From contig JAYWFY010000045.1 in the NCBI GenBank assembly GCA_043778555.1, positions 1 through 59,254 of the forward strand: a DNA stretch of 59,254 bases. The letters run 5' to 3'. Made by a program: the position numbers and the translations under genes. The stretch's first letter is position 1. The number at the start of each line of letters is the position of its first letter. Under the pieces are notes generated by a model. It ran no database searches. It had not been told where the DNA came from and saw only the letters and a program-made list of their open reading frames with translations. Of this stretch, positions 3,415 to 58,873 are shown one piece after another. This DNA is from a bacterium (lineage in GTDB: Bacteria > Patescibacteriota > JACMRA01).

Positions 3415-3444
3415 ATTTTACACTGTACCCCCTAAAGTTTGCAA
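3415..3444 (-). promoter_or_regulatory. Late promoter copy c (upstream of portal)
   Basis: Minus strand: TTGCAA-actttAGGGGGTACAGTG-TAAAAT, with an 18-nt spacer. Confidence 0.55.
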
Positions 3445-16279: not shown

Positions 16280-16511
16280 GACTGTGAAATATTGGCTACA
16301 AATTGATATTTACTAGCTAATAGGATTATAAGAAAAATTGCAAATGTTGTCAATTCACTCATAGAACTTGACTAATTATAGCAATATGTTTTATAGTTAA
16401 ATAAAGCTTAAATCAATACATATATTACAAGTAAATTACTAATTAATACTTTCATATTTTTAATCAATTAGTCAAAGTACATTGACATAACTAACAAAAC
16501 CTATTAACATT

Positions 16512-17777: not shown

Positions 17778-17807
17778 TTGACACTTCAAGTCAAAAAATG
17801 ATAAGAT
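17778..17807 (+). promoter_or_regulatory. Promoter for 17814..18722 (leaderless)
   Basis: TTGACA-18-TAAGAT, with the ATG 6 nt downstream. Confidence 0.55.
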
Positions 17808-17813
17808 TAAACA

Positions 17814-18722
17814 ATGTCAAAAAACTTACTCGAGCTCAAATATCAGGGTCAAGCTGTTGATGATGGCTCTATTGATTTGCAAGATTTAATCCCTGCTTTG
17901 ATAGGAATGGACGAGATTTTACAAAGAATTAACAAGCTTATTAATGGCGAAAGCTCAAGGTTAATAGTCAAAGCCCAACCCCTAGAAAAAGGTTCTGTAG
18001 TTATTACTTTGGAGTTGGTGACCAATTTTATCCAAACTCTTTTTTCTGGTGTAGATACAGTTCAGGCTAGTGCCAAAATTCTTGAAGTACTTCTTGGTAC
18101 TGCTGGCGTAGCTGGCTTGATTAAAGCTATCAAAATGAAGGCTAGCGAGGATTTGTCAACTATTGAGTATTTTGAAAATGATGACGGCAAAACTGTTACA
18201 ATGAAGACAGCAAAAGGACAAATAGCAATTTGCAAAGAAGGACTGATATTGTTAGGAGATAAAGATATGGTTAAAGCTATAAAAAAAGTAATTGTAGATC
18301 CTATTCAAAAAAATAACTTAGATCAATTAATAATCTCTAAAATTCAGGATAGTAATAAAATATCAGAAAGTATTACTTCTCAAGAGGTGAGCTATTTTGA
18401 TTTTGAGCCATTGTCAAAAGAAAGCCAGCTAGATGACCAAACTGGAGAAGACTATTTGCAAGTGATTAGCCCAAACCTAGATCCTGACAAACAACTCAAA
18501 TGGGAATTCCGAAGGACAGGTTCAAAGATATTTGCAAATATGAACGATGCTGACTTTTGGGCAAAATTAAAGAATGGAGATCAAAAAATATCAGTCAACG
18601 ATATTTACAAATGCAAAATTACTACCAAATACTGCGTCAAAGGCGGAGAGGTCAAAGGCGATGTATCTATAGATAAAGTACTTGAAGTTATCAACAATGA
18701 CACTAGCCAAAAATTGTTTTAA
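17814..18722 (+). CDS. Hypothetical 302-aa accessory protein (leaderless, own promoter and terminator)
   Basis: ORF track. TTGACA-18-TAAGAT lies 6 nt upstream of the ATG, and a terminator follows at 18741-18770. Confidence 0.6.
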   Translation: MSKNLLELKYQGQAVDDGSIDLQDLIPALIGMDEILQRINKLINGESSRLIVKAQPLEKGSVVITLELVTNFIQTLFSGVDTVQASAKILEVLLGTAGVAGLIKAIKMKASEDLSTIEYFENDDGKTVTMKTAKGQIAICKEGLILLGDKDMVKAIKKVIVDPIQKNNLDQLIISKIQDSNKISESITSQEVSYFDFEPLSKESQLDDQTGEDYLQVISPNLDPDKQLKWEFRRTGSKIFANMNDADFWAKLKNGDQKISVNDIYKCKITTKYCVKGGEVKGDVSIDKVLEVINNDTSQKLF

Positions 18723-18740
18723 TATTAGCAAGTACCCTTC

Positions 18741-18770
18741 ACCCCCCCTAATAGGTGGTTTTTTGTTGCC
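18741..18770 (+). terminator. Cassette terminator, copy 2
   Basis: ACCCCC-cctaata-GGTGGT, then TTTTTGTTGCC. The 18-mer AGGTGGTTTTTTRTTGCC is shared with copy 1. Confidence 0.5.
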
Positions 18771-18816
18771 CACCCTACTGCAAATAGTAAAAGTGGATTT
18801 GACTGGTTAATAAGTT

Positions 18817-18846
18817 TTGACAAAATGATATAAAATAGTATATAAT
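18817..18846 (+). promoter_or_regulatory. Promoter for 18855..19868 (leaderless)
   Basis: TTGACA-18-TATAAT, with the ATG 8 nt downstream. Confidence 0.65.
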
Positions 18847-18854
18847 GATATAGT

Positions 18855-19868
18855 ATGAAATTATCACAATATGCAAAATTAAAAGGAGTATCCTATTTGA
18901 CAGCCAAAAAATGGTTTCACGCTGGAGATATTAAAGGTGTACAAATGCCGAGCGGTACAATTGTTATTGACGAATTAATCCCCGAAAAATTAGTTGATCC
19001 AAATATTATTAAAGTATCCCACCAAGGAAAAATTACAATTGGAGATTTCAAATTACCTTGTTATGTGCTAGAAAATGGATTGAGAGTTTTGTCAGGGCGT
19101 GGCATGCAAGCCTCTTTATCTATCAACAACACTGGCGGCCAAAAAATGGTCAGTTTTATAACCAAAAGTAGTTTAAAACCTTTTATTGACGCTGAAATAA
19201 TTGCGGCCATAAACACTCCGATGCAATTTGCAAATAAACAAGGAAAAATAGGATATGGTTTTGAAGCAAAAATATTAAATAAAATATGTTCAAATTTGTT
19301 GTCATATAGAAGGCATTGTTTACAAAACAATATGGCTATTTCTGATTCAGAAAATAGGATAATTAGTCAATGTGAGATTCTTCAAGGTGGATTTGCTGAG
19401 GTTGGTATTATAGCCCTCGTTGACGAAGCCACAGGCTATCAAGGAGATAGGCAAAAAGATGAGCTTCAAAAGATCCTTAGTGCATATATTTCTAAAGAAC
19501 TTTTACCTTGGCAAAAACGATTCCCAAATGAGTATTACGAGCAAATATGCAGACTTAGAGATTGGAATTATGATCCTCTTACTCAAAAAAGACCACAAAT
19601 CATCGGTAAAATTACAAATCAGATTGTGTATAAACTATTGCCAGACGGCATTTTAGAAGAATTAAGGAAACTTAATCCACCAAATGAGAATGGTAATAGA
19701 TCGCAAAACCATCACCAATTTTTGACACTTGATATTGGTAATATTAATCTTGAAAGGCACTTAGCTCAAGTCATAGTTTTGATGAGAATTTGTAAATCTT
19801 GGGTAGAGTTTGAAGAAAAACTATACGACGCTTTCCCCAGATTTGGTCAACAAGAAAAATTATTTTAG
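18855..19868 (+). CDS. P63C-domain protein with N-terminal excisionase/MerR-type HTH
   Basis: N-terminus MKLSQYAKLKGVSYLTAKKWFHAGDIKG. C-terminal P63C-like block ..ALVDEATGYQ..WQKRFPNEYYEQICRL..NHHQFLT... The final G of the TAG stop is the first base of the IS inverted repeat. Confidence 0.65.
   Translation: MKLSQYAKLKGVSYLTAKKWFHAGDIKGVQMPSGTIVIDELIPEKLVDPNIIKVSHQGKITIGDFKLPCYVLENGLRVLSGRGMQASLSINNTGGQKMVSFITKSSLKPFIDAEIIAAINTPMQFANKQGKIGYGFEAKILNKICSNLLSYRRHCLQNNMAISDSENRIISQCEILQGGFAEVGIIALVDEATGYQGDRQKDELQKILSAYISKELLPWQKRFPNEYYEQICRLRDWNYDPLTQKRPQIIGKITNQIVYKLLPDGILEELRKLNPPNENGNRSQNHHQFLTLDIGNINLERHLAQVIVLMRICKSWVEFEEKLYDAFPRFGQQEKLF
19858..19867. repeat. Target-site duplication, left copy (AATTATTTTA)
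   Basis: Immediately abuts the left TIR. Identical to 21932-21941. Confidence 0.8.
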
Positions 19869-19879
19869 GTAATTATCCC
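19868..19879. repeat. IS left terminal inverted repeat GGTAATTATCCC
   Basis: Perfect reverse complement of 21920-21931. Confidence 0.8.
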
Positions 19880-19908
19880 TTGACAACACTTAAATAATAT
19901 GATATAAT
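19880..19908 (+). promoter_or_regulatory. Transposase promoter abutting the left TIR
   Basis: TTGACA-17-TATAAT, starting 1 nt after the TIR. Confidence 0.65.
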
Positions 19909-19929
19909 TATAGGGTAATAAACAACCTT

Positions 19930-20841
19930 ATGATTCCTCAAAAATTCGTCAAATATACTATAAAAGAATTTCGTAAAAACTTTGCCACAGATGACATTTG
20001 CCTAGATTATCTATTCAAACAGTTCTACGGTCATTTGAGTGATTTTGATAAATACTACAAAATTAAAGGTCGTAAAGAATATGTACACTCTGTAACTGGA
20101 GAGCATATCTCGCCAACTGCAAATAGTATTTTTCATAAATCTAGTACTCCTTTGACAACTTGGTTTGAGGTAATCTACAAGTTCTGTAATAGTCGAAATG
20201 GTGTTAGTGCAATGGAAATAATGCGTGATTTTGGTATGACCTACAAATGTGCTTGGAGAGTTGCAAATCAAGTAAGAAGTCTGTTTGGATCAAATAAAGC
20301 TGACAAACTAGCTGGAATTATAGAGGCGGACGAAACTTACATCGGAGGCAAAGAAGGTAATAAAAAACTAAGTAAAAGACAAAAAGGAACTCAAGGTAGA
20401 AGCTCCAAAACAAAAACTCCAGTGATAGGAGTTGTAAAGCGAACTGATGAAGATTCTAAGTCTGAAATTCGAGCTAAAGTAGTCGCTGATACTTCACGAT
20501 CAACAATAATGCCATTTGTCAAAGCAAATGTAGAAATCAATTCTAGTTTGATGACTGATGAATATCAATCTTACAACGGAGCATATAGTGCTGGATATGA
20601 CCACCAAAGAGTAATCCATAGCTCTAGCCAATATGTCCTTGGAAATGTTTATACAAACACTTTGGAGGGCTTTTGGTCACTGCTTAAATGTGGAATTACT
20701 GGAACTTATAGAATGGTCTCACCAAAGTATCTACAAATGTATGTCAATGAGTTTATGTATCGTTACAATCACGACCATAGCAAATCTCATTTGTTTGACA
20801 CTGTACTTTGTAATTTAGTTAAGAATGATTTAATTGTTTAG
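19930..20841 (+). CDS. IS1595-family (ISXO2-like) DDE transposase
   Basis: 303 aa. ..LAGIIEADETYIGGKEGNKK.. and ..LMTDEYQSYNG..HQRVIHS..TNTLEGFWSLLK fit the DDE_Tnp_IS1595 pattern. Confidence 0.8.
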   Translation: MIPQKFVKYTIKEFRKNFATDDICLDYLFKQFYGHLSDFDKYYKIKGRKEYVHSVTGEHISPTANSIFHKSSTPLTTWFEVIYKFCNSRNGVSAMEIMRDFGMTYKCAWRVANQVRSLFGSNKADKLAGIIEADETYIGGKEGNKKLSKRQKGTQGRSSKTKTPVIGVVKRTDEDSKSEIRAKVVADTSRSTIMPFVKANVEINSSLMTDEYQSYNGAYSAGYDHQRVIHSSSQYVLGNVYTNTLEGFWSLLKCGITGTYRMVSPKYLQMYVNEFMYRYNHDHSKSHLFDTVLCNLVKNDLIV

Positions 20842-21869
20842 TCAAAAAGTGGGATTGGCTGAGGAGTATTTGGATATGGTATCCTCTCGTTTAACCTAGC
20901 CATCGCTTCGTTCATATCGCCTCCAGAATCAGCTGTTTGTTCAAAAATCAATTCTGCTTTCCCAAGTACATATTTCATTTGTTCTCTTCCATAATCTGTG
21001 AGGTTTTGGTGTAACCTGTGTTTATATCCTCCATTTTTTGATTTAATTGCCCTATCTTTTAACTCTTCTAAAATAACTGAGCCAGCAGGAAGGCGTTTAT
21101 AAAGATCATTTGTTATCCAAGAAACACATTGAGGGTGGTTTATTTTCTCGAGTGAATAATGATCCCATTCCCAACTATAAAGCCTATAAATCTGTTTATA
21201 AAACTCTTCAGGAAATAATTTTAACCAAGGTCTCAGTGCGTCTGCTATATTTTTCTTAATTACTTCTTGCCATTCATTTATTCTTTTTTCATATCCAGTT
21301 ACTTCATAAATCAACGCTTTGATTCCTATTTCCGCGAGTGATTCAACAAGTATTTCTGTCTGTTTTACTAGTAATAAAGACAATTTTGGGTCAGGTAAAA
21401 TTTTGTAATCGCTACTTTTTTCGCGATTGATTCTTGTAATTGCTGTACAAAGTTTAGGTAAAATTTCAGCTGGAATAAGAGCTGTTTTCATACCTCCTCC
21501 TTTACCTCTTTTCCCGTACAGAGGATATTTAATTGAGTTTAATACATCTTGAGTAATTAATGACCTAAAAATTACTTTTCCAAAAAGTTCTTCTAAGGCA
21601 GTTCCTCGTTTTGAATCTAAAAAAAACAATTTTTGTACATCATTTCTAGCTAAAAGAGTTATTGCTTCATTATTTTCATTTTTTCCTACATAGCATTCTA
21701 AACTTATTTCTCCAAGATTTAGCTGGTTTTCTGGCTCACCTGCAATTATTGGAATAAGGTCAGCCCTTTTAGCTTTTTTAAGTGTTTCGTTTATTTGAAT
21801 TTGAAATTGTTCTCGCTCTTTATTAAGCTCTTCATCATTTTGAAGTTGGCTAGATGTAGTTGTAATCAT
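20838..21869 (-). CDS. P63C-domain protein (IS passenger gene)
   Basis: ATG at 21869 (MITTTSSQ..). ..ALIYEVTGYE..WLKLFPEEFYKQIYRL..HRLHQNLT.. is paralogous to 18855..19868. A promoter lies 8 nt upstream. Confidence 0.65.
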   Translation of the reverse strand: MITTTSSQLQNDEELNKEREQFQIQINETLKKAKRADLIPIIAGEPENQLNLGEISLECYVGKNENNEAITLLARNDVQKLFFLDSKRGTALEELFGKVIFRSLITQDVLNSIKYPLYGKRGKGGGMKTALIPAEILPKLCTAITRINREKSSDYKILPDPKLSLLLVKQTEILVESLAEIGIKALIYEVTGYEKRINEWQEVIKKNIADALRPWLKLFPEEFYKQIYRLYSWEWDHYSLEKINHPQCVSWITNDLYKRLPAGSVILEELKDRAIKSKNGGYKHRLHQNLTDYGREQMKYVLGKAELIFEQTADSGGDMNEAMARLNERIPYPNTPQPIPLFD

Positions 21870-21877
21870 ACCAGATA

Positions 21878-21907
21878 ATTCTACAATAAAAATTACCACT
21901 ATGTCAA
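21878..21907 (-). promoter_or_regulatory. Promoter of the IS passenger P63C gene (leaderless)
   Basis: Minus strand: TTGACA-18-TAGAAT, with the ATG 8 nt downstream. Confidence 0.6.
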
Positions 21908-21919
21908 AAGTGGCGTTAG

Positions 21920-21931
21920 GGGATAATTACC
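21920..21931. repeat. IS right terminal inverted repeat GGGATAATTACC
   Basis: Perfect reverse complement of 19868-19879. Confidence 0.8.
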
Positions 21932-21941
21932 AATTATTTTA
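21932..21941. repeat. Target-site duplication, right copy (AATTATTTTA)
   Basis: Immediately abuts the right TIR. Confidence 0.8.
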
Positions 21942-22064
21942 AACTATATTAATTTTAGCTTTAGATCCACAAACAGGGGTTTTTCTCACGCCCAAAAACC
22001 AGTGCAAAAATAGAAAAGTGTGTAAATAAACAGAATAACTAACTATTCAAGCAACTTTCTTTAG

Positions 22065-22082
22065 AGGTGGGTTTTTATTGCA
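22065..22082 (+). terminator. Cassette terminator-like copy 3 (stem unclear)
   Basis: AGGTGGGTTTTTATTGCA lies about 125 nt beyond the IS. It is probably the original terminator of 18855..19868. Confidence 0.35.
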
Positions 22083-22097
22083 TTATTTTAGTAGACC

Positions 22098-23294
22098 CTA
22101 CTTTTTGACAGCCTCTCCACCACTGGCAATACAAGCCTCCATAGTGTCATAATTTGTCCAAGTTTTGGTCGTGCTATATCCTGCTGTTCCTCTAAAGTGA
22201 CATTTGCCAGAGCTGGCAGTTTTGATCACTGCACTTTTCTCAAGGCTGGTTGGGTTGGTAACTTTTGGAGTTTCTATTATTTGAGCTTTTGGTGTCTCTA
22301 ATTTTGGTGATGTTATAGCTGGTGTCTGTGCAACTGGCGGAATTAAGACATTAGTTTTAGTATTTTCTTTGCTTGCTTGAGTTGTATCTCCGTTACAAGT
22401 GTCAGCCGACCACAATCCTCTTTGGTTCTCTCTAGCAGATTTTTGAGCATTTAGATAAATTTCTGATCTTGGATGCGGAAACTTCACATAGGCGTTGGCA
22501 TAACCGTCTAGTATAGCATTGTAATTGTAATCATAGCCTGTTTCTGTAGTAATATATGCCAAGACTCTATTGTATTTGTCAATCCTGTCCGAAGGGTTAA
22601 ATTCTAGTTTGACTTTTTGACCGTCAAGTTTATTGTGAGCATTTTGACTAGCTTCTTTTCCAAAACATTGCACTACTTTGCGCGGATCTTTGGTTTCGGG
22701 TGTGTCTATGCCTATCAATCTCAGTGTTCCATACTTTTCTACTTTGACAGTATCTCCATCTACCACTTTCAAGATTTTGACATATTCTCCAATAGGCAAT
22801 GTATTTATAACTTTTTCCACTTCTTTTATATCATTGACAACCTCTACTTTTTGACCGTCGTTGTCTATGGTTTTGCCCTGTTCTAGTTTGATATATTCAG
22901 AGCTTGAGACAGTGACTGTTTGACTAGATGTTGCGATTATAGAGCTACTTGATAGCCTAGCGTCTTTTGTGCCAGATTCAGGTAATAAAGAACTTTGTAC
23001 GCTACTTGAGCTTAGTATGCCCAAAGTTTGTTTTGCATCTTTTACAGGATCTATCTTATTTGTTCCAGTTACTACTGCCGTCCAAGCCGTGCCGACTATA
23101 CCTAGGAAAAATATTGGCAAAATTAAAATTGCTACTTTTGCCCACTTTGGCATTTTGAGTTTCCAAACAAATCTTATTAGAAAATATCCAAGTACAAAAA
23201 ATAAAGCGTAAAAGCAAACCATTAATGCTAAGATATAGCAAATGATTCCCAGGATTTTGTTTTTTGTGTAAATTGATTTTAATTTTTGTATCAT
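22098..23294 (-). CDS. Membrane-anchored thermonuclease (SNase-like) with a Cys-containing C-terminal module
   Basis: N-terminal TM helices and an S/T-rich linker. The SNase core is ..VDGDTVKV..LRLIGIDTPETKDP..R.LAYI... The C-terminus SGKCHFRGTAGYSTTKTW..ACIASGG is sunset-domain-like. Confidence 0.7.
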   Translation of the reverse strand: MIQKLKSIYTKNKILGIICYILALMVCFYALFFVLGYFLIRFVWKLKMPKWAKVAILILPIFFLGIVGTAWTAVVTGTNKIDPVKDAKQTLGILSSSSVQSSLLPESGTKDARLSSSSIIATSSQTVTVSSSEYIKLEQGKTIDNDGQKVEVVNDIKEVEKVINTLPIGEYVKILKVVDGDTVKVEKYGTLRLIGIDTPETKDPRKVVQCFGKEASQNAHNKLDGQKVKLEFNPSDRIDKYNRVLAYITTETGYDYNYNAILDGYANAYVKFPHPRSEIYLNAQKSARENQRGLWSADTCNGDTTQASKENTKTNVLIPPVAQTPAITSPKLETPKAQIIETPKVTNPTSLEKSAVIKTASSGKCHFRGTAGYSTTKTWTNYDTMEACIASGGEAVKK

Positions 23295-23304
23295 AATAAC
23301 TCAA

Positions 23305-23333
23305 ATTATACCGTTTATAAAGGTTTTGGTCAA
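23305..23333 (-). promoter_or_regulatory. Thermonuclease promoter
   Basis: Minus strand: TTGACC-17-TATAAT, with the ATG 10 nt downstream. Confidence 0.65.
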
Positions 23334-23472
23334 AATTAAATACAAAGAAAATACACAATTTTGTATATTTATTCATAGTAATTTAGTATTCTATAATGCA
23401 ATCAATACTCTTTTTAATGGCTTATTACAGGTTTTTATAGCTTTAAGTAATTAGTAATCTACTATGAGTACC

Positions 23473-23501
23473 TTGACATAACAAAAAAAGTTATGTATAA
23501 T
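23473..23501 (+). promoter_or_regulatory. Promoter of the recombination operon
   Basis: TTGACA-17-TATAAT, followed immediately by the conserved 38-mer. Confidence 0.65.
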
Positions 23502-23539
23502 TAGATAGTTAAGTAATTAATAATTTGACAGCTAAGAAA
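23502..23539 (+). promoter_or_regulatory. Conserved 38-mer leader/operator, copy 1
   Basis: TAGATAGTTAAGTAATTAATAATTTGACAGCTAAGAAA, matching 26604-26641 at 35/38 positions. Confidence 0.7.
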
Positions 23540-23712
23540 AACAACCCCTCATAGGGCAGTAAAAAAATATGACTATTAGTTTGTTTTCCAATCCGTGCGA
23601 TTGAGACCAGATGATCATATCCATAGCAACTTGCTAGCAATCTATATTGTGCTAGTAACAAGCCAGCCCGTCAATAATTAATCAAATTTCTTTCAAAACA
23701 ACTTTATGCCAG

Positions 23713-23946
23713 ATGAATACCAAAACTTTTACCTTGATTCAATCACCCCACAATCGGAATTTGATCAAGATCCGGTTCAACCTGAAGAAGGAGATTTTAC
23801 TTTTGCTTCAGAAGATTGATCTTATTTCCATATTATTGTTAGTCATACTTTTCTTTGCTTTCCAATATGCAGTGAATAATGATTGCAATATGACTTGGAA
23901 TCAATGTGATTCCCACGGAATCATCCAAACTATAAACCAAAAATAA
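23713..23946 (+). CDS. Small membrane protein (alternative: overlapping 36-aa acidic ORF 23706-23816)
   Basis: 77 aa with the TM segment LISILLLVILFFAF. It ends 6 nt before the next gene. The overlapping frame MPDEYQNFYLDSITPQSEF.. resembles the leader ORF at 26781. Confidence 0.35.
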   Translation: MNTKTFTLIQSPHNRNLIKIRFNLKKEILLLLQKIDLISILLLVILFFAFQYAVNNDCNMTWNQCDSHGIIQTINQK

Positions 23947-23952
23947 CCTTTT

Positions 23953-24897
23953 ATGTCAGAAATTGCAACCGTCGCCAACCCTCAAATCCAGAATGATAGC
24001 CTCGCTTCATTCCAAGTCCTAGCCTCATTCGCTAATCAATTGTGTAAATCAGAGGCACTCCCAGCTTGCTATAAAAATGCAGCCAACGTTTTAGTAGCTC
24101 TCCAAACAGGCAAAGAAATGGGATTGCAGCCAATGGAGTCGCTCAACTCACTGTATATTGTAAATGGTAAAATCCAAATTTGGGGATCAGCTCAAATCAA
24201 ACTATTAAAGCTAAATGGCTGGAAACTTAATGTCAGAACAACAACAGACAAACTTTGTGACCTGCAAATCACCAAAGGAGATGAGTCATTTGACTATCAA
24301 ACCAAATTTGAAGAATTACCTACATCATCAAAAGCAAAGGCGTTCGCTCCAAAAGAAAAACTATATTATCACACAGTTAGCAGATTGATAAGATTTTACG
24401 TTCCTGAAGTATTAGGTGGTCAACACCTTTATAATGAGGTAGAAATTGCAGATATTGAGCCGACAGTAACAGTAACACAGCTAGGAGACAACGAATCCTT
24501 AATCAAATTCATCAGTACAGCCAAGTCAATTGACGTTTTAAAAAATATTGAATCTCAATGTAAAACTGACAATGAAAAATTAGCTTACTCAGAAAAACTA
24601 AATACTTTTTTAGCAGTTGTTGAAAAACCTGTAACACCAGAAGTTGAAACAACTCCTATAGAAGTAGAAACTCCTGTTACGATTGCATCTTTACCAGTAA
24701 TTGATCTATTTGAACAGCCAAAAGCTTGTCACCTCAAATTGTACAGTGTTTTAGGTTTAGCTTATCCAGAGCCTGAAACTTACCAGCGAGCAATTGGATT
24801 AATTTCAGAGCAATATGGTATGGAGCTAATTGAAGACTTGACCGAAGCACAGTGCCAAGAGCAAATTAATTTAATCCAAAAAGTAATCAAAAACTAG
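23953..24897 (+). CDS. RecT-like single-strand annealing protein
   Basis: ..VLVALQTGKEMGLQPMESLNSLYIVNGKIQIWGSAQIKLLKLNGW.. is an SSAP-like core. The gene is paired with a nuclease gene. Confidence 0.55.
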   Translation: MSEIATVANPQIQNDSLASFQVLASFANQLCKSEALPACYKNAANVLVALQTGKEMGLQPMESLNSLYIVNGKIQIWGSAQIKLLKLNGWKLNVRTTTDKLCDLQITKGDESFDYQTKFEELPTSSKAKAFAPKEKLYYHTVSRLIRFYVPEVLGGQHLYNEVEIADIEPTVTVTQLGDNESLIKFISTAKSIDVLKNIESQCKTDNEKLAYSEKLNTFLAVVEKPVTPEVETTPIEVETPVTIASLPVIDLFEQPKACHLKLYSVLGLAYPEPETYQRAIGLISEQYGMELIEDLTEAQCQEQINLIQKVIKN

Positions 24898-24900
24898 CCT

Positions 24901-25563
24901 ATGGATTTTTCAAACTATCAATTCAGGTGTTCACAACTTCCGCTTTTAATGACTAAATCAAAGAAAGCTGGAGAGCTATCTGAAACTGTCAAAACAGTTC
25001 TCCAAGAAATTTGGATCAAAGAAATCTATTTTAGAGAAAAAATCATCACTTCTAAGTACCTTGAAAAAGGTATAAACCAAGAAGACAAATCAATCGAATT
25101 ATACAATGAGTATAGTCAAACATTTACAACCAAAAATAGTCAAAAGTTTTTTGGTGAATATTTAGTTGGTACTCCAGATATAATCCGAGAAAACTCAGTC
25201 GATGACATCAAAACTTGCTGGGATATTTGGAGCTTTTCCAAAAAGTCTTATGATACAGCTAAAAAAGATTATTACTACCAATTACTAGCCTATATGATCC
25301 TTACTGAGCGTCAAGAAGCCTCTATTGTCTATTGTCTATTAAACAACTCAGAAGAGATTATAACAAAAGAATCTTGGGGGATGAATGAAGCTCAAATTGC
25401 TCAAGTGAGATACAACAATACTTATGATGACATTCCAGTTCATGATAAAGTCAAAGTATTCCATTTTAGCTACGACAAAGACGAAGTTGCAGCAGTTTAT
25501 GCGCAGCTAGATCTATGCCGAGAATATCTTAAAAATATAAAATATGAATCCTTTAACCAATAA
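24901..25563 (+). CDS. PD-(D/E)XK exonuclease (YqaJ/lambda-Exo-like)
   Basis: ..GTPDII..(9)..DDIKTCW.. gives a D..D-x-K motif. The gene lies 3 nt downstream of the SSAP gene. Confidence 0.55.
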   Translation: MDFSNYQFRCSQLPLLMTKSKKAGELSETVKTVLQEIWIKEIYFREKIITSKYLEKGINQEDKSIELYNEYSQTFTTKNSQKFFGEYLVGTPDIIRENSVDDIKTCWDIWSFSKKSYDTAKKDYYYQLLAYMILTERQEASIVYCLLNNSEEIITKESWGMNEAQIAQVRYNNTYDDIPVHDKVKVFHFSYDKDEVAAVYAQLDLCREYLKNIKYESFNQ

Positions 25564-25568
25564 ATTTT

Positions 25569-25673
25569 ATGATTATTTATACTATCAAAAACCACCAAGT
25601 TCTTGTTTCAGATTCGATCATTTTTAGTGACAATTTAATCAATTACTATTTCTTCAAAAAAATCTATTATTAA
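25569..25673 (+). CDS. Micro-ORF (34 aa)
   Basis: Hand translation: MIIYTIKNHQVLVSDSIIFSDNLINYYFFKKIYY*. It starts 5 nt after the exonuclease stop. Confidence 0.3.
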   Translation: MIIYTIKNHQVLVSDSIIFSDNLINYYFFKKIYY

Positions 25674-25674
25674 A

Positions 25675-25764
25675 ATGCTCTCTATGGACTTTATTTACTC
25701 ATTATTCCCTTGTATTACAGGCTTCATAATTGGTAGTTTAATTGCAAAACACATCTTAAAATAA
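25675..25764 (+). CDS. Micro-ORF (29 aa), single-TM peptide
   Basis: MLSMDFIYSLFPCITGFIIGSLIAKHILK*. It starts 1 nt after the previous stop. Confidence 0.35.
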   Translation: MLSMDFIYSLFPCITGFIIGSLIAKHILK

Positions 25765-25775
25765 CCCTTTATAAC

Positions 25776-25880
25776 ATGACTAACTCACAAACCATAATTA
25801 ACTTCATAATCTGGTTAATCCTAGCAGGCTATTTTTTAGCCATCTTTACCTATTTTCTATTCCATTCAGGAGTTCAGTGA
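25776..25880 (+). CDS. Micro-ORF (34 aa), single-TM peptide
   Basis: MTNSQTIINFIIWLILAGYFLAIFTYFLFHSGVQ*. Confidence 0.35.
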   Translation: MTNSQTIINFIIWLILAGYFLAIFTYFLFHSGVQ

Positions 25881-25922
25881 TAAAAAGCTTATAAGAATCG
25901 ACAAACTTGCTTTGGGAAAAAT

Positions 25923-26156
25923 CTATAATCCACCAAGCATTTCAAAAAAAGTTTCTTCATCTAGTCCTATTTGTTTCAGATATGTTTTTACATGAAACGG
26001 TGGTATATTTTTATCTTTTGGCTTGACAATCAGTGGTCGTTTATCTCCTATACGAGCGTAAAAAAAGTGGCTACCAGTAGATCTGATAAACACAAACCCT
26101 AGCAGTTCTAATATTTTTACAAAATCTTTAGTTTTGATAGGAGGGAACGGCGGCAT
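25923..26156 (-). CDS. hicA: HicA-family mRNA interferase toxin
   Basis: 77 aa. ..KDFVKILELLGFVFIRSTGSHFFY..PLIVKPKDKNIPPFHVKTYLKQIGL matches the HicA pattern (GSH...; vp.H...l..g.l..ilkq.g). Confidence 0.75.
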   Translation of the reverse strand: MPPFPPIKTKDFVKILELLGFVFIRSTGSHFFYARIGDKRPLIVKPKDKNIPPFHVKTYLKQIGLDEETFFEMLGGL

Positions 26157-26490
26157 GAGTAGCTGGTTTAAAAGATAACAATGTTTTTATTACAAAAGGT
26201 GGAATAATCGTCACTTCATGATCGTTCTCTATTACTTTCCAGCCACATTCGCTCATTACTTCGTTCAGTGTGCCAAGATCCATCAAAGTTTCAAAAAACC
26301 CTTGCAAAGCCTCATTCATCTCGGTAAAACAACCTTCTTGAGTATCTGCCCAAGTTGAGACTTCCAAATCTGGACATTCTACTAGCCATAGACCGTTTTC
26401 TTGTAAAGATATTTCAATAGGTACACCACCCATCAGCTGGATTTGTTTTGTGACAGTGTTCACTTTACAGATTTTGTTATTATTTTTCAT
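26128..26490 (-). CDS. hicB: HicB-family antitoxin
   Basis: ATG at 26490 (MKNNNKICK..; the track start at 26580 is a TTG). ..GLWLVECPDLEVSTWADTQEGCFTEMNEALQGFFE.. is a HicB/UPF0150-like fold motif. It overlaps hicA by 29 nt. Confidence 0.6.
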   Translation of the reverse strand: MKNNNKICKVNTVTKQIQLMGGVPIEISLQENGLWLVECPDLEVSTWADTQEGCFTEMNEALQGFFETLMDLGTLNEVMSECGWKVIENDHEVTIIPPFVIKTLLSFKPATHAAVPSYQN

Positions 26491-26500
26491 ATGTAATTGT

Positions 26501-26529
26501 ATTATATCACACTTTTTGTTATTACACAA
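26501..26529 (-). promoter_or_regulatory. hicBA promoter
   Basis: Minus strand: TTGTGT-17-(TGa)TATAAT, with the ATG 10 nt downstream. Confidence 0.55.
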
Positions 26530-30088: not shown

Positions 30089-31756
30089 TCACACTTTCAA
30101 ACTCATAATCACACCGACCCGCTCTTGACAAAACTGTAATAAATAATCAACCTTAAAAGGTTCAATATTGACCCGCTCAGTTGCACCATTGACAAATTCA
30201 TCATCTAATTCACCCCAAAAGTCCCTTAACAAAGGGCTTTTTTGTTGGTTCAATACAACCACTTTGTCATCTTTCTTATAGACTACAAATCCTTCAGGAA
30301 AAAGCAAGTTCAAAAGCTTTTTTTTAGTGGTATTATTGGCTTGATTAAAGCGTTTGTCAATTTCTATAGCTTCATCCAAACAAAGGTTCAATACATCTCC
30401 GACTTTGGCTTTTGGCTCACTAGATAATTTAATCAATTCTTTTTTGTATTCTAAAATCTTATTATTGTTTTCTACAGATTTTTTTTCAATAGCTTTCACC
30501 AAAGCTGGAGAATCAACAAGTAATATTTTTGCCACTGCCGTTTCATTTTCGATTTCAATATCTTTAATTTTTCGTTTAATCTTATCAATTTCTTTTTGGT
30601 TTTCAGCTTGTATATTTTTAGCTTTCTCTCCGAGGTATTTTTGCAGGTATTGAATAAATTTCAATGACAATACTTGTTTGGACAAATAGTTCAAAACTTC
30701 AAGCTCTATGAGTTCAGAGCGTATTGTCTTTGATTGCTGGTTACAGCCACGAGTGGGGCAAGCGTAATATTGCCACTCCAAAACACTCCCATTTTTTAAT
30801 GTTTTCTTTTTTAATTGTGTTGTCATGAAGTTTTGACACTCACTACATTTAGCGCAGCGTTTAAATATAAATTGATTATTGTTATTTTTCATGTATGCTG
30901 ATCTTTGAGATTTATTAATTCTTTCTAATATTTTTAAGTAAGTGTTTAAATCGATAATAGGCTTGTGAAGAGCATTTGACTTTGGGAAATTTGTTTTTTT
31001 GTCTACATTCTTTGGGTCGTACATATCTACGCCTTGGTTGGGTTTGTGGATAAATCCAGCATACAGAGGATTGGTGAGCATATCTTTGACATCCTCTTGT
31101 CTCTTGTTTATTCCAAGGCTTCTCAGATACTTTTGAACCTCTGCGCAACCTGAATAATTCCCATTAGCAAAGTCTTCTAGTAGCTCTTTAACTACAGGGG
31201 CTTTATCATTTTGTTGCATTATTTTAAGTTGTGATTTACCACTATTGTCATAGCCAAGTGGTGAGCCATAAAACCAATAACCTTGCTGGAGTCTCGCTTT
31301 TGACCGCTCCTTGGCTGTAGTAAGGTTAGATTTACGCATAAACTCATCTTGCCCACCCATCATCGTGAGCATTAACCAGCCAGCGTCAGTTTTCATATCT
31401 ACACCGTGCAGGTTAAAAAATTGAACATCATAATTATAGTCTTTTGTCAGTGTATCTACTGTAGAAAGCAGGAATATTACATCCCGAGCTAGCCTTGAAG
31501 TAGAAGGAAACAGCACCGTCAGATTTGGATTTTCTTTGCATTTTACTAGCAACAAATCAATCCCCTCTCGCTGTCTATTTCCTCCGCTAATAGCTTCATC
31601 TTGGAATGATTCCATGATCATATACCCATATTTTTTGGCATATTCCTTGCACTCTTGTAGCTGTGAACTCAGACCATTACCTTCGGTGACTTGCTTCCGT
31701 GATGACACTCTGCAATAGGTAAAACAGGGCTTTAGTTCTTGGACTTGGTCGGACAT
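30089..31756 (-). CDS. int: Large serine recombinase (integrase)
   Basis: 555 aa. N-terminal resolvase motif ..FTYCRVSSRKQ... It also has a recombinase domain, a zinc ribbon (CAKCSEC..YYACPTRGC) and a C-terminal coiled coil. Confidence 0.85.
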   Translation of the reverse strand: MSDQVQELKPCFTYCRVSSRKQVTEGNGLSSQLQECKEYAKKYGYMIMESFQDEAISGGNRQREGIDLLLVKCKENPNLTVLFPSTSRLARDVIFLLSTVDTLTKDYNYDVQFFNLHGVDMKTDAGWLMLTMMGGQDEFMRKSNLTTAKERSKARLQQGYWFYGSPLGYDNSGKSQLKIMQQNDKAPVVKELLEDFANGNYSGCAEVQKYLRSLGINKRQEDVKDMLTNPLYAGFIHKPNQGVDMYDPKNVDKKTNFPKSNALHKPIIDLNTYLKILERINKSQRSAYMKNNNNQFIFKRCAKCSECQNFMTTQLKKKTLKNGSVLEWQYYACPTRGCNQQSKTIRSELIELEVLNYLSKQVLSLKFIQYLQKYLGEKAKNIQAENQKEIDKIKRKIKDIEIENETAVAKILLVDSPALVKAIEKKSVENNNKILEYKKELIKLSSEPKAKVGDVLNLCLDEAIEIDKRFNQANNTTKKKLLNLLFPEGFVVYKKDDKVVVLNQQKSPLLRDFWGELDDEFVNGATERVNIEPFKVDYLLQFCQERVGVIMSLKV

Positions 31757-31910
31757 ACTGTATATTGTCGTACAAAAAGTAAGATCAAGTCAAGACGACA
31801 AAAAACACCCTAAAGTAGAGTGAAAAATCTTTCGCCATTTTTTTTATTTTCTATTATAATGTAGAAAAATATAACTATTGTCAAAACTAATAAAAAATGC
31901 TCAAAGCTCT

Positions 31911-43271: not shown

Positions 43272-43838
43272 TTAGGTTATTTGGTTTATATCGATTGATA
43301 TTAGTTCTGTGTCCACTTTAATATTTTCAAACTTGTTGCCTAAAGAATCTACGATCTGGAATACTTGATAATACTTTCCAACTGGTAGGGTCGCCGTTAC
43401 AGTTTGATCAATAGCAACCGTGATTCGGTTTGTTGGTTGGTTCGGCTGCAAAGTATAAGTTTGGAGAGGATAAACAATATCTATAGCTTGTGGATTATCA
43501 ACTTTGTTTTTGACAATTAGCATTTGGAGCTGATAGCCTGTCCAGTCAAAGTCGTTGTTAGATTCTTTGTTGGTATAGATCATACTGTTTTGACCAGTTC
43601 CTGATAGTTTTGTTAGAACTCCTTTAGGATAAAGGTTGTCAATAATGCAATTACTCACACATTTTATTTTGTTGCCTGCTATTCCAATTACCCAAAAAGT
43701 ATAGTTTTCAGATTTATAGCTTGCACCGATTTGTGGTAATAAATACAAGTTTTGAATATCAAAAACAAAGATTTTAGACGGCATTTTTGGTCTGATTATT
43801 CTCTGATAGGGCGAACCTCGAATGATAATGTTTGACAT
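43272..43838 (-). CDS. Hypothetical structural protein (leaderless start behind a late promoter)
   Basis: ATG at 43838 (MSNIIIRGSPYQ..) lies 8 nt downstream of the TAGAAT of a late-promoter copy. The longer track start would place the promoter inside the CDS. Confidence 0.5.
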   Translation of the reverse strand: MSNIIIRGSPYQRIIRPKMPSKIFVFDIQNLYLLPQIGASYKSENYTFWVIGIAGNKIKCVSNCIIDNLYPKGVLTKLSGTGQNSMIYTNKESNNDFDWTGYQLQMLIVKNKVDNPQAIDIVYPLQTYTLQPNQPTNRITVAIDQTVTATLPVGKYYQVFQIVDSLGNKFENIKVDTELISIDINQIT

Positions 43839-43846
43839 CTGATATA

Positions 43847-43876
43847 ATTCTACACTGTACCCCCTTATAATTTCAA
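43847..43876 (-). promoter_or_regulatory. Late promoter copy b
   Basis: Minus strand: TTGAAA-ttataAGGGGGTACAGTG-TAGAAT. The ATG lies 8 nt downstream. Confidence 0.55.
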
Positions 43877-43883
43877 CCAAATT

Positions 43884-43902
43884 AAAAACCCCCATTTGGT
43901 GG
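43884..43902 (-). terminator. Weak hairpin plus U-run after 43903..44307
   Basis: Minus strand: CCACC-aaat-GGGGG-TTTTT (one mismatch), directly upstream of late promoter b. Confidence 0.4.
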
Positions 43903-58251: not shown

Positions 58252-58809
58252 TTATTCTTTGTTCGCAAGTAATTCCCAAACTGGTTTTCGGACTTGAACA
58301 CTAGCTTTCGCCTCTGGTTCTTTGTCTTCGACTTTTGGAGTTTCCTCGACTTTTGGTTCTGCTTTAGCCTCTGGTGCTTTGACCATACACGCTTTGATTT
58401 CTTTTAGCTCCTTACCCATATTTTCCATCTCTGCTTTCATTTCTGAACACATAGATTTCAATTCTGAATAATCTTTAGCTTTGGCTTCTTCGACCTTTGA
58501 TTTTTTAGCCATTTCTTCCTCTGATTTAGTTTCAGCGACTACTTTTGCCTTTTTGGCTTCGGTTTCTTCGCTTGATTCCTTTTCATCGGCTACTGGAGCT
58601 TCTTCGGTGATTTTGCCATCTGTCTCATACTTTCCTTCCGCTGTTGGCGTAAATGTCAAAATGTATTCTTTGGTGTCTCCTTCAAGTTGAAATTCAACCT
58701 GTACAGATTCATCTTTTAGAACACAGATCTCAACACAGTCCGTCAAAACTGCTTCTGGATTAGAAGTTGATAAAGATTGCTTTAGAGCGTTAATAAGTTT
58801 TTCGTACAT
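58252..58809 (-). CDS. Scaffolding protein
   Basis: 185 aa, highly acidic and K/E-rich helical (..EEMAKKSKVEEAKAKDYSELKSM..). It lies between the protease and capsid genes. Confidence 0.6.
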   Translation of the reverse strand: MYEKLINALKQSLSTSNPEAVLTDCVEICVLKDESVQVEFQLEGDTKEYILTFTPTAEGKYETDGKITEEAPVADEKESSEETEAKKAKVVAETKSEEEMAKKSKVEEAKAKDYSELKSMCSEMKAEMENMGKELKEIKACMVKAPEAKAEPKVEETPKVEDKEPEAKASVQVRKPVWELLANKE

Positions 58810-58843: not shown

Positions 58844-58873
58844 ATTCTACACTGTACCCCCTTGTAATTTCAA
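58844..58873 (-). promoter_or_regulatory. Late promoter copy a (upstream of scaffold/capsid)
   Basis: Minus strand: TTGAAA-ttacaAGGGGGTACAGTG-TAGAAT. Confidence 0.55.

Follow-up and report, generated by a model that had tools for sequence, protein, structure and literature searches.

How is translation started in a genome whose genes carry no Shine-Dalgarno (SD) sequence? The question is raised by contig JAYWFY010000045.1 of the bacterial assembly GCA_043778555.1, a stretch of 59,254 nucleotides (hereafter the window) that carries a phage genome, and in which a first-pass annotation had noticed promoters standing almost directly before start codons. We conclude, with a probability of about three in four, that the phage and its host share one SD-free expression architecture with two modes of initiation, one leaderless and the other leadered or translationally coupled and likewise independent of SD pairing. 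The feature is real and was correctly read, and it represents a known kind of architecture in a new lineage. The statistics of the sequence, the link between phage and host and the conservation across genera, which are described below, are direct observations.

As a contig (C45) the window belongs to a bin (G000) of 66 contigs and 0.96 Mb in total, and it represents the entire genome of a temperate siphovirus with a serine integrase. Its first 98 bases recur at its end, so that it closes into a circle of 59,156 bp. Family searches matched the large terminase, portal, major head protein and tape-measure protein, and also a DNA methyltransferase, a RecT-like protein with an exonuclease, an SNase-domain nuclease, two P63C proteins, an IS1595 transposase, a HicA/HicB pair and a large serine integrase; the structural families together with the integrase indicate a temperate, siphovirus-like phage. 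Its 72 genes were called with a simple home-made caller based on codon bias, with a naive first-start rule, and 71 starts were testable. Genetic code 11 fits the phage, TGA acting as a genuine stop. An alternative code in which TGA is a sense codon, as in SR1/Gracilibacteria, was rejected: 11% of host genes end in TGA, and the median length after which a frame closes is 6.5 codons.

Missing Shine-Dalgarno signals and promoter-abutting start codons in the phage

The motifs GGAGG, AGGAG, GAGG and AGGA are all missing from positions -20 to -1 of the phage starts (0/71), which confirms the earlier claim that no GGAGG-like sequence precedes them; a single GGAG stands before a doubtful 62-aa open reading frame (ORF) beginning with TTG. 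Pairing with the anti-SD was measured as the duplex energy of the upstream 20 nt against the 16S rRNA tail of the bin itself, of which the whole 13 nt were used. Upstream of phage starts the mean energy is -1.54 kcal/mol, whereas 20-mers drawn at random from the window give -2.69 kcal/mol and the regions before internal ATGs -3.72 kcal/mol; pairing is weaker than random and there is no SD enrichment. The method does pick up SD sequences where they are present, since four Firmicutes prophage loci, treated with the same naive start rule as a positive control, give a mean of -6.3 kcal/mol, 62% of their starts reaching -6 or lower. Moreover, G accounts for about 5% of positions -20 to -1 of phage starts as against about 21% before internal ATGs. 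SD-like sequence is avoided upstream of the phage starts, beyond being merely absent.

The six pairs of promoter and ATG listed in the first-pass annotation are all present, with coordinates checked by hand (Table 1; genes are named by the position of their start). A separate promoter scan recovers five of them and misses that of 26490, whose -35 box has three mismatches. A seventh gene with the same geometry, the integrase (31756), was absent from that list. Judging from the position of the boxes, these genes would have 5' untranslated regions of 0-3 nt. The view that many genes look leaderless has to be scaled down: the geometry is real, and 'many' overstates it, because about 7 of the 72 genes are concerned, corresponding to 7 of the roughly 20 transcription units, or about a third.

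The boxes could be a chance product of A/T-rich DNA, with transcription coming from elsewhere and ordinary leaders that are still SD-free. In fact, promoter-like sites are frequent: the window holds 61 with at most two mismatches, many of them intragenic, and in a separate scan the overall excess of promoter-like sites is modest (89 against 65.9 +/- 8.7). Five of these 61 sites have an ORF-opening ATG 5-10 nt past the -10 box where 0.9 are expected (P = 0.002), and a -10 box at a gap of 5-10 nt is found at 5/20 heads of phage transcription units (25%) versus 1-2/20 in control windows (5-10%). Chance, however, accounts poorly for the four perfect 12/12 promoters (TTGACA-17/18-TATAAT) found between 14 and 32 kb, where by our own arithmetic about 0.05 would be expected. 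The same region has nine sites with at least 11/12 matches, three of which open ORFs of at least 337 aa at gaps of 8-10 nt (P about 3e-4, again our arithmetic). A terminator-like hairpin also lies immediately upstream of the integrase promoter, so that there is no room for a leader.

Table 1. Features of the phage discussed in the text, in coordinates of the window; gap is the distance in nt from the -10 box to the ATG
Feature	Coordinates	Strand	Details
Whole phage genome	1..59254		59,156 bp + 98-bp overlap; 72 called genes, none with SD
17814 gene (DUF7946/phrog_3243, 17814-18722)	17778..17816	+	-35 TTGACA 17778-17783, spacer 18, TGa-TAAGAT, -10 17802-17807, gap 6
First P63C-domain gene, ATG 18855	18817..18857	+	perfect 12/12 TTGACA-18-TATAAT, -10 18841-18846, gap 8
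IS1595 transposase, ATG 19930	19880..19932	+	perfect extended -10 promoter TTGACA-17-TGaTATAAT, gap 21
Second P63C gene, ATG 21869	21867..21907	-	TTGACA 21907-21902, spacer 18, TAGAAT 21883-21878, gap 8
SNase-domain nuclease, ATG 23294	23292..23333	-	TTGACC 23333-23328, spacer 17, TATAAT 23310-23305, gap 10
HicB-like antitoxin, ATG 26490	26488..26529	-	TTGTGT 26529-26524, spacer 17, TGaTATAAT (-10 26506-26501), gap 10; then HicA 25923-26156
attP core GCACCA	30183..30188		within the 3' end of the int ORF; recombines with C63:6116-6121
Serine integrase, ATG 31756	31754..31822	-	hairpin 31822-31806, TTGACT 31793-31788, spacer 18, GACAAT 31769-31764, gap 7
Late-promoter copy, ATG 43838	43836..43876	-	TTGAAA-18-TAGAAT, GGGGGTACAGTG spacer, gap 8

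The proposed architecture would work as follows. In the first mode, a sigma-70-type promoter (TTGACA-17/18-TAnAAT) ends 6-10 nt before the ATG in about a third of the phage units; most of these are stand-alone accessory or early genes between 17.8 and 26.5 kb, joined by int and a single late unit. Transcription would begin at the AUG or 1-3 nt before it, and the ribosome would bind the 5'-terminal AUG directly, a type of binding that has been demonstrated with leaderless mRNAs of other bacteria. In the second mode, the remaining genes lie behind predicted leaders of 14-300 nt or are packed in operons, and their start window is G-depleted, A-rich, unstructured and poor in AUG, A standing at -3, U at -1 and C at +5; accessibility, this Kozak-like context and termination-reinitiation coupling would together determine the start. 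The phage is tightly packed, with a median intergenic spacing of 5 nt, and 76% of the genes inside its operons either overlap their upstream neighbour or are separated from it by at most 15 nt.

The late promoter occurs in three copies on the minus strand (3415-3444, 43847-43876 and 58844-58873), which have in common the GGGGGTACAGTG spacer and a TA(G/A)AAT -10 box. The gap to the ATG is 24 nt at the portal gene (3390), 8 nt at the tail-region gene (43838) and 34 nt at 58809. One and the same promoter would thus serve a leaderless gene and genes with leaders of about 17 nt (3390) and about 27 nt (58809), which suggests that the expression apparatus copes with both. The transposase transcript, with a predicted leader of about 14 nt, would likewise not be leaderless. 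Two further perfect TTGACA-17-TATAAT promoters, at 16325-16353 on the minus and 23473-23501 on the plus strand, are followed by about 200-300 untranslated nt until the next called gene; these stretches may act as regulatory leaders or encode small RNAs.

The host and its expression signals

The identity of the host follows from two prophage junctions. A contig of 107.8 kb in another assembly carries an identical large terminase gene (terL), and by walking from two phage genes through other assemblies both ends of the prophage were reached. One junction (L010) joins C45:18681-30203 to C63:6116-15393, C63 being another contig of the bin, and the other (L036) joins C45:43252-30183 to C63:6132-1, in each case with 99.9-100% identity; the int-side junction, of the L036 type, was seen in three independent assemblies and the L010 type in two. 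Host and phage are present in the samples ERZ27314329, ERZ27314327, ERZ28573618, ERZ28573732 and SRR14689466. The core GCACCA at C63:6116-6121 is the 3' end of the host tRNA-Leu(GAG). Since both junctions fall in C63, and at this tRNA end, the host of the phage is the organism of the bin. The first-pass annotation had argued that the host fits neither Bacteroidota-type promoters nor SD-dependent Firmicutes and had proposed to look for prophage copies in bacterial genomes; with both junctions recovered, its argument proved right, the host being a metagenome-assembled genome of the Patescibacteria.

Other routes to the host were uninformative. Short matches between phage and bin, CRISPR spacers or other, were chance 20-24-mers only. 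Among named genomes terL found only Firmicutes prophages of about 35% identity, which say nothing of the host, and among 27 genomes of the host's order it matched solely the phage's own contig. The nucleotide search of a phage collection gave no match to this phage, and IMG/VR held no relatives of its integrase or SNase protein.

We conclude that the host is an ultra-small bacterium of the Patescibacteria (candidate phyla radiation, CPR). Its genome is about 1-1.2 Mb, with 35% GC and the standard code, and the bin is about 76% complete. Its 16S rRNA is very divergent, uL30 is absent, and the nearest named relatives of its EF-Tu are from a 'candidate division SR1 bacterium' (85%) and a 'Patescibacteria group bacterium' (83%). 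The 27 species genomes of its order measure 0.8-1.6 Mb, and those of all 30 sampled families of the phylum 0.5-2.0 Mb, which likewise speaks for this placement.

The host has the same signals as the phage, which points to the phage copying the host's style of expression, a style that is uncommon but has precedents. Upstream of 776 host genes the mean pairing energy is -1.53 kcal/mol versus -2.73 kcal/mol at random, and each of the SD-core motifs GGAG, GAGG and AGGA occurs at no more than 9/776 genes. SD-independent initiation, which had been proposed for the phage, is statistically supported for it and for the proven host alike. The start context is also common to both: T at -1 in 74% of phage and 69% of host starts, A at -3 in 63% and 51%, C at +5 in 61% and 42%. 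The second codons TCA and TCC are favoured, and G stands at about 5% across positions -25 to +18 in both genomes. Windows of 40 nt fold with about -1 kcal/mol at host starts, as against -3 to -5 kcal/mol elsewhere; beside starts, ATG trinucleotides are depleted 3-8 times.

Promoters, too, are arranged in the host as in the phage. The exact TTGACA is found in 171/775 host upstream regions (22%) and in 8/71 of the phage, while the Bacteroidia-type TANNTTTG is found in 41/775 (5%) and 1/71, respectively. Of 217 strong promoter-gene pairs of the host, 46 have a gap of 6-9 nt between the -10 box and the start, a density of about 11 pairs per nt versus 0.5-2 per nt at other distances. ATG is the start codon in 44 of these 46 genes, compared with 77% of all naive starts.

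Conservation was followed in the isoleucyl-tRNA synthetase gene (IleRS). In 11/18 orthologues of the host's family, from different species and genera, TTGAC(A/G) ends 31-36 nt before the conserved ATG, and the sequence between this -35 box and the ATG has diverged; this pattern is expected of a promoter whose transcripts begin at the AUG or immediately ahead of it. The sharp 6-9-nt peak in the host and the fixed distance of the IleRS box across genera both speak against boxes arising by chance, an explanation that we now consider very unlikely.

A complete genome of another genus of the same family (G025, of which 400 kb were sampled) has no SD enrichment and a weaker 6-9-nt peak. Eight other families of the phylum, sampled with 100 kb each, which is too little to reveal leaderless peaks, are SD-poor at about the random level, not SD-depleted, and one family uses SD moderately. 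The extreme form of the trait is thus established for the host's family only.

The anti-SD itself is retained, the 16S tail of the bin keeping CCUCC in the form GAUUACCUCCUUU, also given as GGAUUACCUCCUUU. Nearly all sampled families of the phylum likewise retain CACCUCCUUUC, and one has lost it; at a locus of another genome of the phylum (L049, genome G051) the 16S 3' end lacks CCUCC (…GTAGACTATTTCATTTTTTT), which fits the anti-SD loss reported in some Parcubacteria (PMC9297842). A prfB frameshift site was sought as an explanation for the retention of the anti-SD, and no release-factor gene was found in the incomplete bin. The protein bS21 (PF01165) was not found in the bin, which is about 76% complete, and a four-domain S1 protein is present.

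The 16S rRNA could in principle pair in a non-canonical manner, for example through mRNA UAAUC and the lineage-specific GAUUA just 5' of CCUCC. The host 16S has GAUUACCUCC in place of GAUCACCUCC, and a few phage genes do carry GUAAUC-type or AGGGUAAU matches of -6 to -7.6 kcal/mol. The duplex calculation with the whole 13-nt tail, however, still gives weaker pairing than random, and 611 host starts have no localised TAAT, TAATC or GTAAT peak upstream, the enriched k-mers being diffuse and A/C-rich. A localised non-SD motif and UAAUC pairing were both rejected for this lack of a positional peak, and we regard pairing of this sort as very improbable.

Within the phage, the leader of the IS1595 transposase (19909-19929) contains AGGGTAAT, complementary to GAUUACCU of the host 16S with -7.6 kcal/mol. 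It is the strongest anti-SD match before any phage gene starting with ATG, but lies 12-19 nt from the ATG.

Start codons and points against the architecture

The architecture with promoter-abutting ATGs depends on the start codons being right. On a rival view the promoters are real and the annotated starts wrong, the true start being the next in-frame ATG, at codons 25-32, behind leaders of 70-95 nt. Such in-frame ATGs do lie 82-99 nt past the -10 box of 17814, 18855 and 23294, and three of the listed starts were ambiguous to begin with. The homology of the proteins argues otherwise. The alignment with phrog_3243 begins at residue 3 of the 17814 protein, for which the public gene call likewise gives 302 aa, and the Resolvase catalytic domain of the integrase begins at its residue 12, the public calls of the integrated copy using the identical ATG. 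Homology thus fixes these two N-termini and, together with the 6-9-nt peak in the host, the near-exclusive ATG starts of that set and the conserved IleRS box, supports the reading of promoters abutting the ATG. The 18855 protein matches PF10546 and phrog_2384, residue 49 corresponding to profile position 42, which is consistent with this start, and the profile offsets agree with the long forms of both the 18855 and the 23294 protein; 23294 is moreover the first start codon of its ORF. For 26490 the public call is of 120 aa from this start, and independent public gene calls agree overall on 17814, 18855, 23294, 26490 and 31756. The start context (T at -1, C at +5, few G) is also seen at the proposed ATGs. 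Downstream starts in place of the annotated ones therefore seem to us highly improbable.

Two starts are ambiguous. For 21869 the public caller picked GTG 21899 (353 aa), which lies inside the promoter; the offset of phrog_2384 favours neither start, and the N-termini of the two P63C paralogues, which were compared to settle the matter, do not align. For 43838 there is an alternative ATG at 43895, with which the ORF would include the late promoter.

Several points weigh against the architecture with two modes that we prefer. Upstream alternatives exist at three of the seven leaderless-geometry starts, namely the two just mentioned and TTG 26580 for 26490, and the phage calls come from our home-made caller with its naive first-start rule. 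The -10 box of the integrase, GACAAT, is weak. At gaps of 8-10 nt, 1-3 nt may precede the AUG in the transcript. In the host the excess at the leaderless distance is modest by a strict count of -10 boxes alone (14% of transcription-unit heads versus 7% background). The collections searched yielded no relatives of the phage, and the conservation described above is that of a host promoter. Finally, the transcription start positions and the ribosomal mechanism are what we infer from sequence.

A wider formulation would be that a whole family of Patescibacteria and its temperate phage gave up SD pairing while keeping CCUCC, apparently without bS21, that their ribosomes are SD-blind by a mechanism other than that of Bacteroidia, and that starts are specified by promoter-adjacent 5'-AUGs and by a G-free, unstructured window. 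In this full form the proposal is rather doubtful.

The host 16S (C55:32222-33714, locus L002) has ACACACTGCCCATCA where most bacteria have ACACACCGCCCGTCA, and GCAGCAGCGGTGA in the 515 region. In E. coli numbering these decoding-centre bases are U1400 and A1405. U1400 is also found in one other family member and two other members of the phylum, and A1405 was seen in this host 16S alone. These unusual bases might be part of an SD-blind adaptation.

Comparison with known systems and implications

The closest parallels are found in other lineages with leaderless or SD-free mRNAs. Group C of GeneMarkS-2 comprises Actinobacteria and Deinococcus-Thermus and is rich in leaderless genes, as in Mycobacterium tuberculosis (PMC6028130, which cites Cortes et al. 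2013). The likeness lies in the Pribnow-type -10 box 6-8 nt before the start of the first genes of operons, in the AUG start and in a quarter to half of the operons being leaderless. Group C, however, uses SD for its leadered and internal genes, whereas no gene class of this phage and host does; the present genome is also A/T-rich (35% GC) and belongs to the Patescibacteria, and its features are mirrored in a phage.

Bacteroidia (group B, with Flavobacterium johnsoniae) resemble the present system in having SD-less mRNAs together with a 16S that keeps the anti-SD (Baez et al. 2019, PMC6847099; Jha et al. 2020/21, PMC7797042), and in their A-rich, weakly structured start regions with A at -3 and depletion of AUG around starts (PMC6847099). 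There the anti-SD is sequestered with the help of bS21 (PMC6847099, PMC7797042). The promoters differ, being of the -33/-7 type (TTTG / TAnnTTTG) in Bacteroidia and TTGACA/TATAAT here, and 87% of the Bacteroidia transcripts have leaders longer than 10 nt, whereas here a sizeable class of promoters abuts the ATG.

Among phages, accessory genes that stand alone with a promoter of their own, and sometimes a terminator, are known as morons. The cI mRNA of lambda made from PRM is leaderless and is translated from its 5'-terminal AUG; it is, however, a single exception in a genome that uses SD, while in the present phage the design is repeated and matches the habit of the host.

In the archaeon Haloferax volcanii a leaderless majority reportedly coexists with leadered mRNAs that are independent of SD (Kramer et al. 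2014; Babski et al. 2016). The likeness is functional, since leaderless and leadered transcripts occur there too without SD pairing; the difference is that its TATA/BRE promoter lies about 26 nt upstream and its machinery is not homologous. Expression of this type forms group D (PMC6028130).

No paper on leaderless or SD-free expression in Patescibacteria was found in the limited literature that we searched, so novelty is not proven. The practical consequence is that software for gene calling or host prediction that relies on SD would misplace starts in such phages, as in the public call of the second P63C gene at a GTG inside its promoter. Conversely, the signature of starts (no SD, T at -1, C at +5 and promoter-abutting ATGs) provides a signal for linking phages to hosts, checked here against a proven prophage junction. 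The Patescibacteria, with their reduced ribosomes, would join the lineages in which translation is SD-free and many mRNAs are leaderless, a point relevant to the question whether leaderless initiation is an ancestral trait or has arisen repeatedly through genome reduction. Compact promoter-ATG cassettes could also serve as genetic tools in CPR co-cultures.

Some minor features complete the description. In the host, C44:5967-10124 carries L6-L18-S5, then EF-Ts-like and L25-like genes and then L15, with no uL30, as judged from N-terminal sequences only. The phage toxin-antitoxin pair (25923-26490, minus strand) consists of a HicB-like antitoxin of 120 aa, with leaderless geometry, which overlaps the HicA gene (77 aa, PF07927) by 29 nt. 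The integrase is 555 aa long when encoded by the circular form and 529 aa long in integrated copies (window 30089-30203); as attP lies inside the 3' end of int, integration swaps the C-terminal ~30 residues of the protein. The core GCACCA at the same time restores the encoded CCA end of tRNA-Leu(GAG) upon integration.

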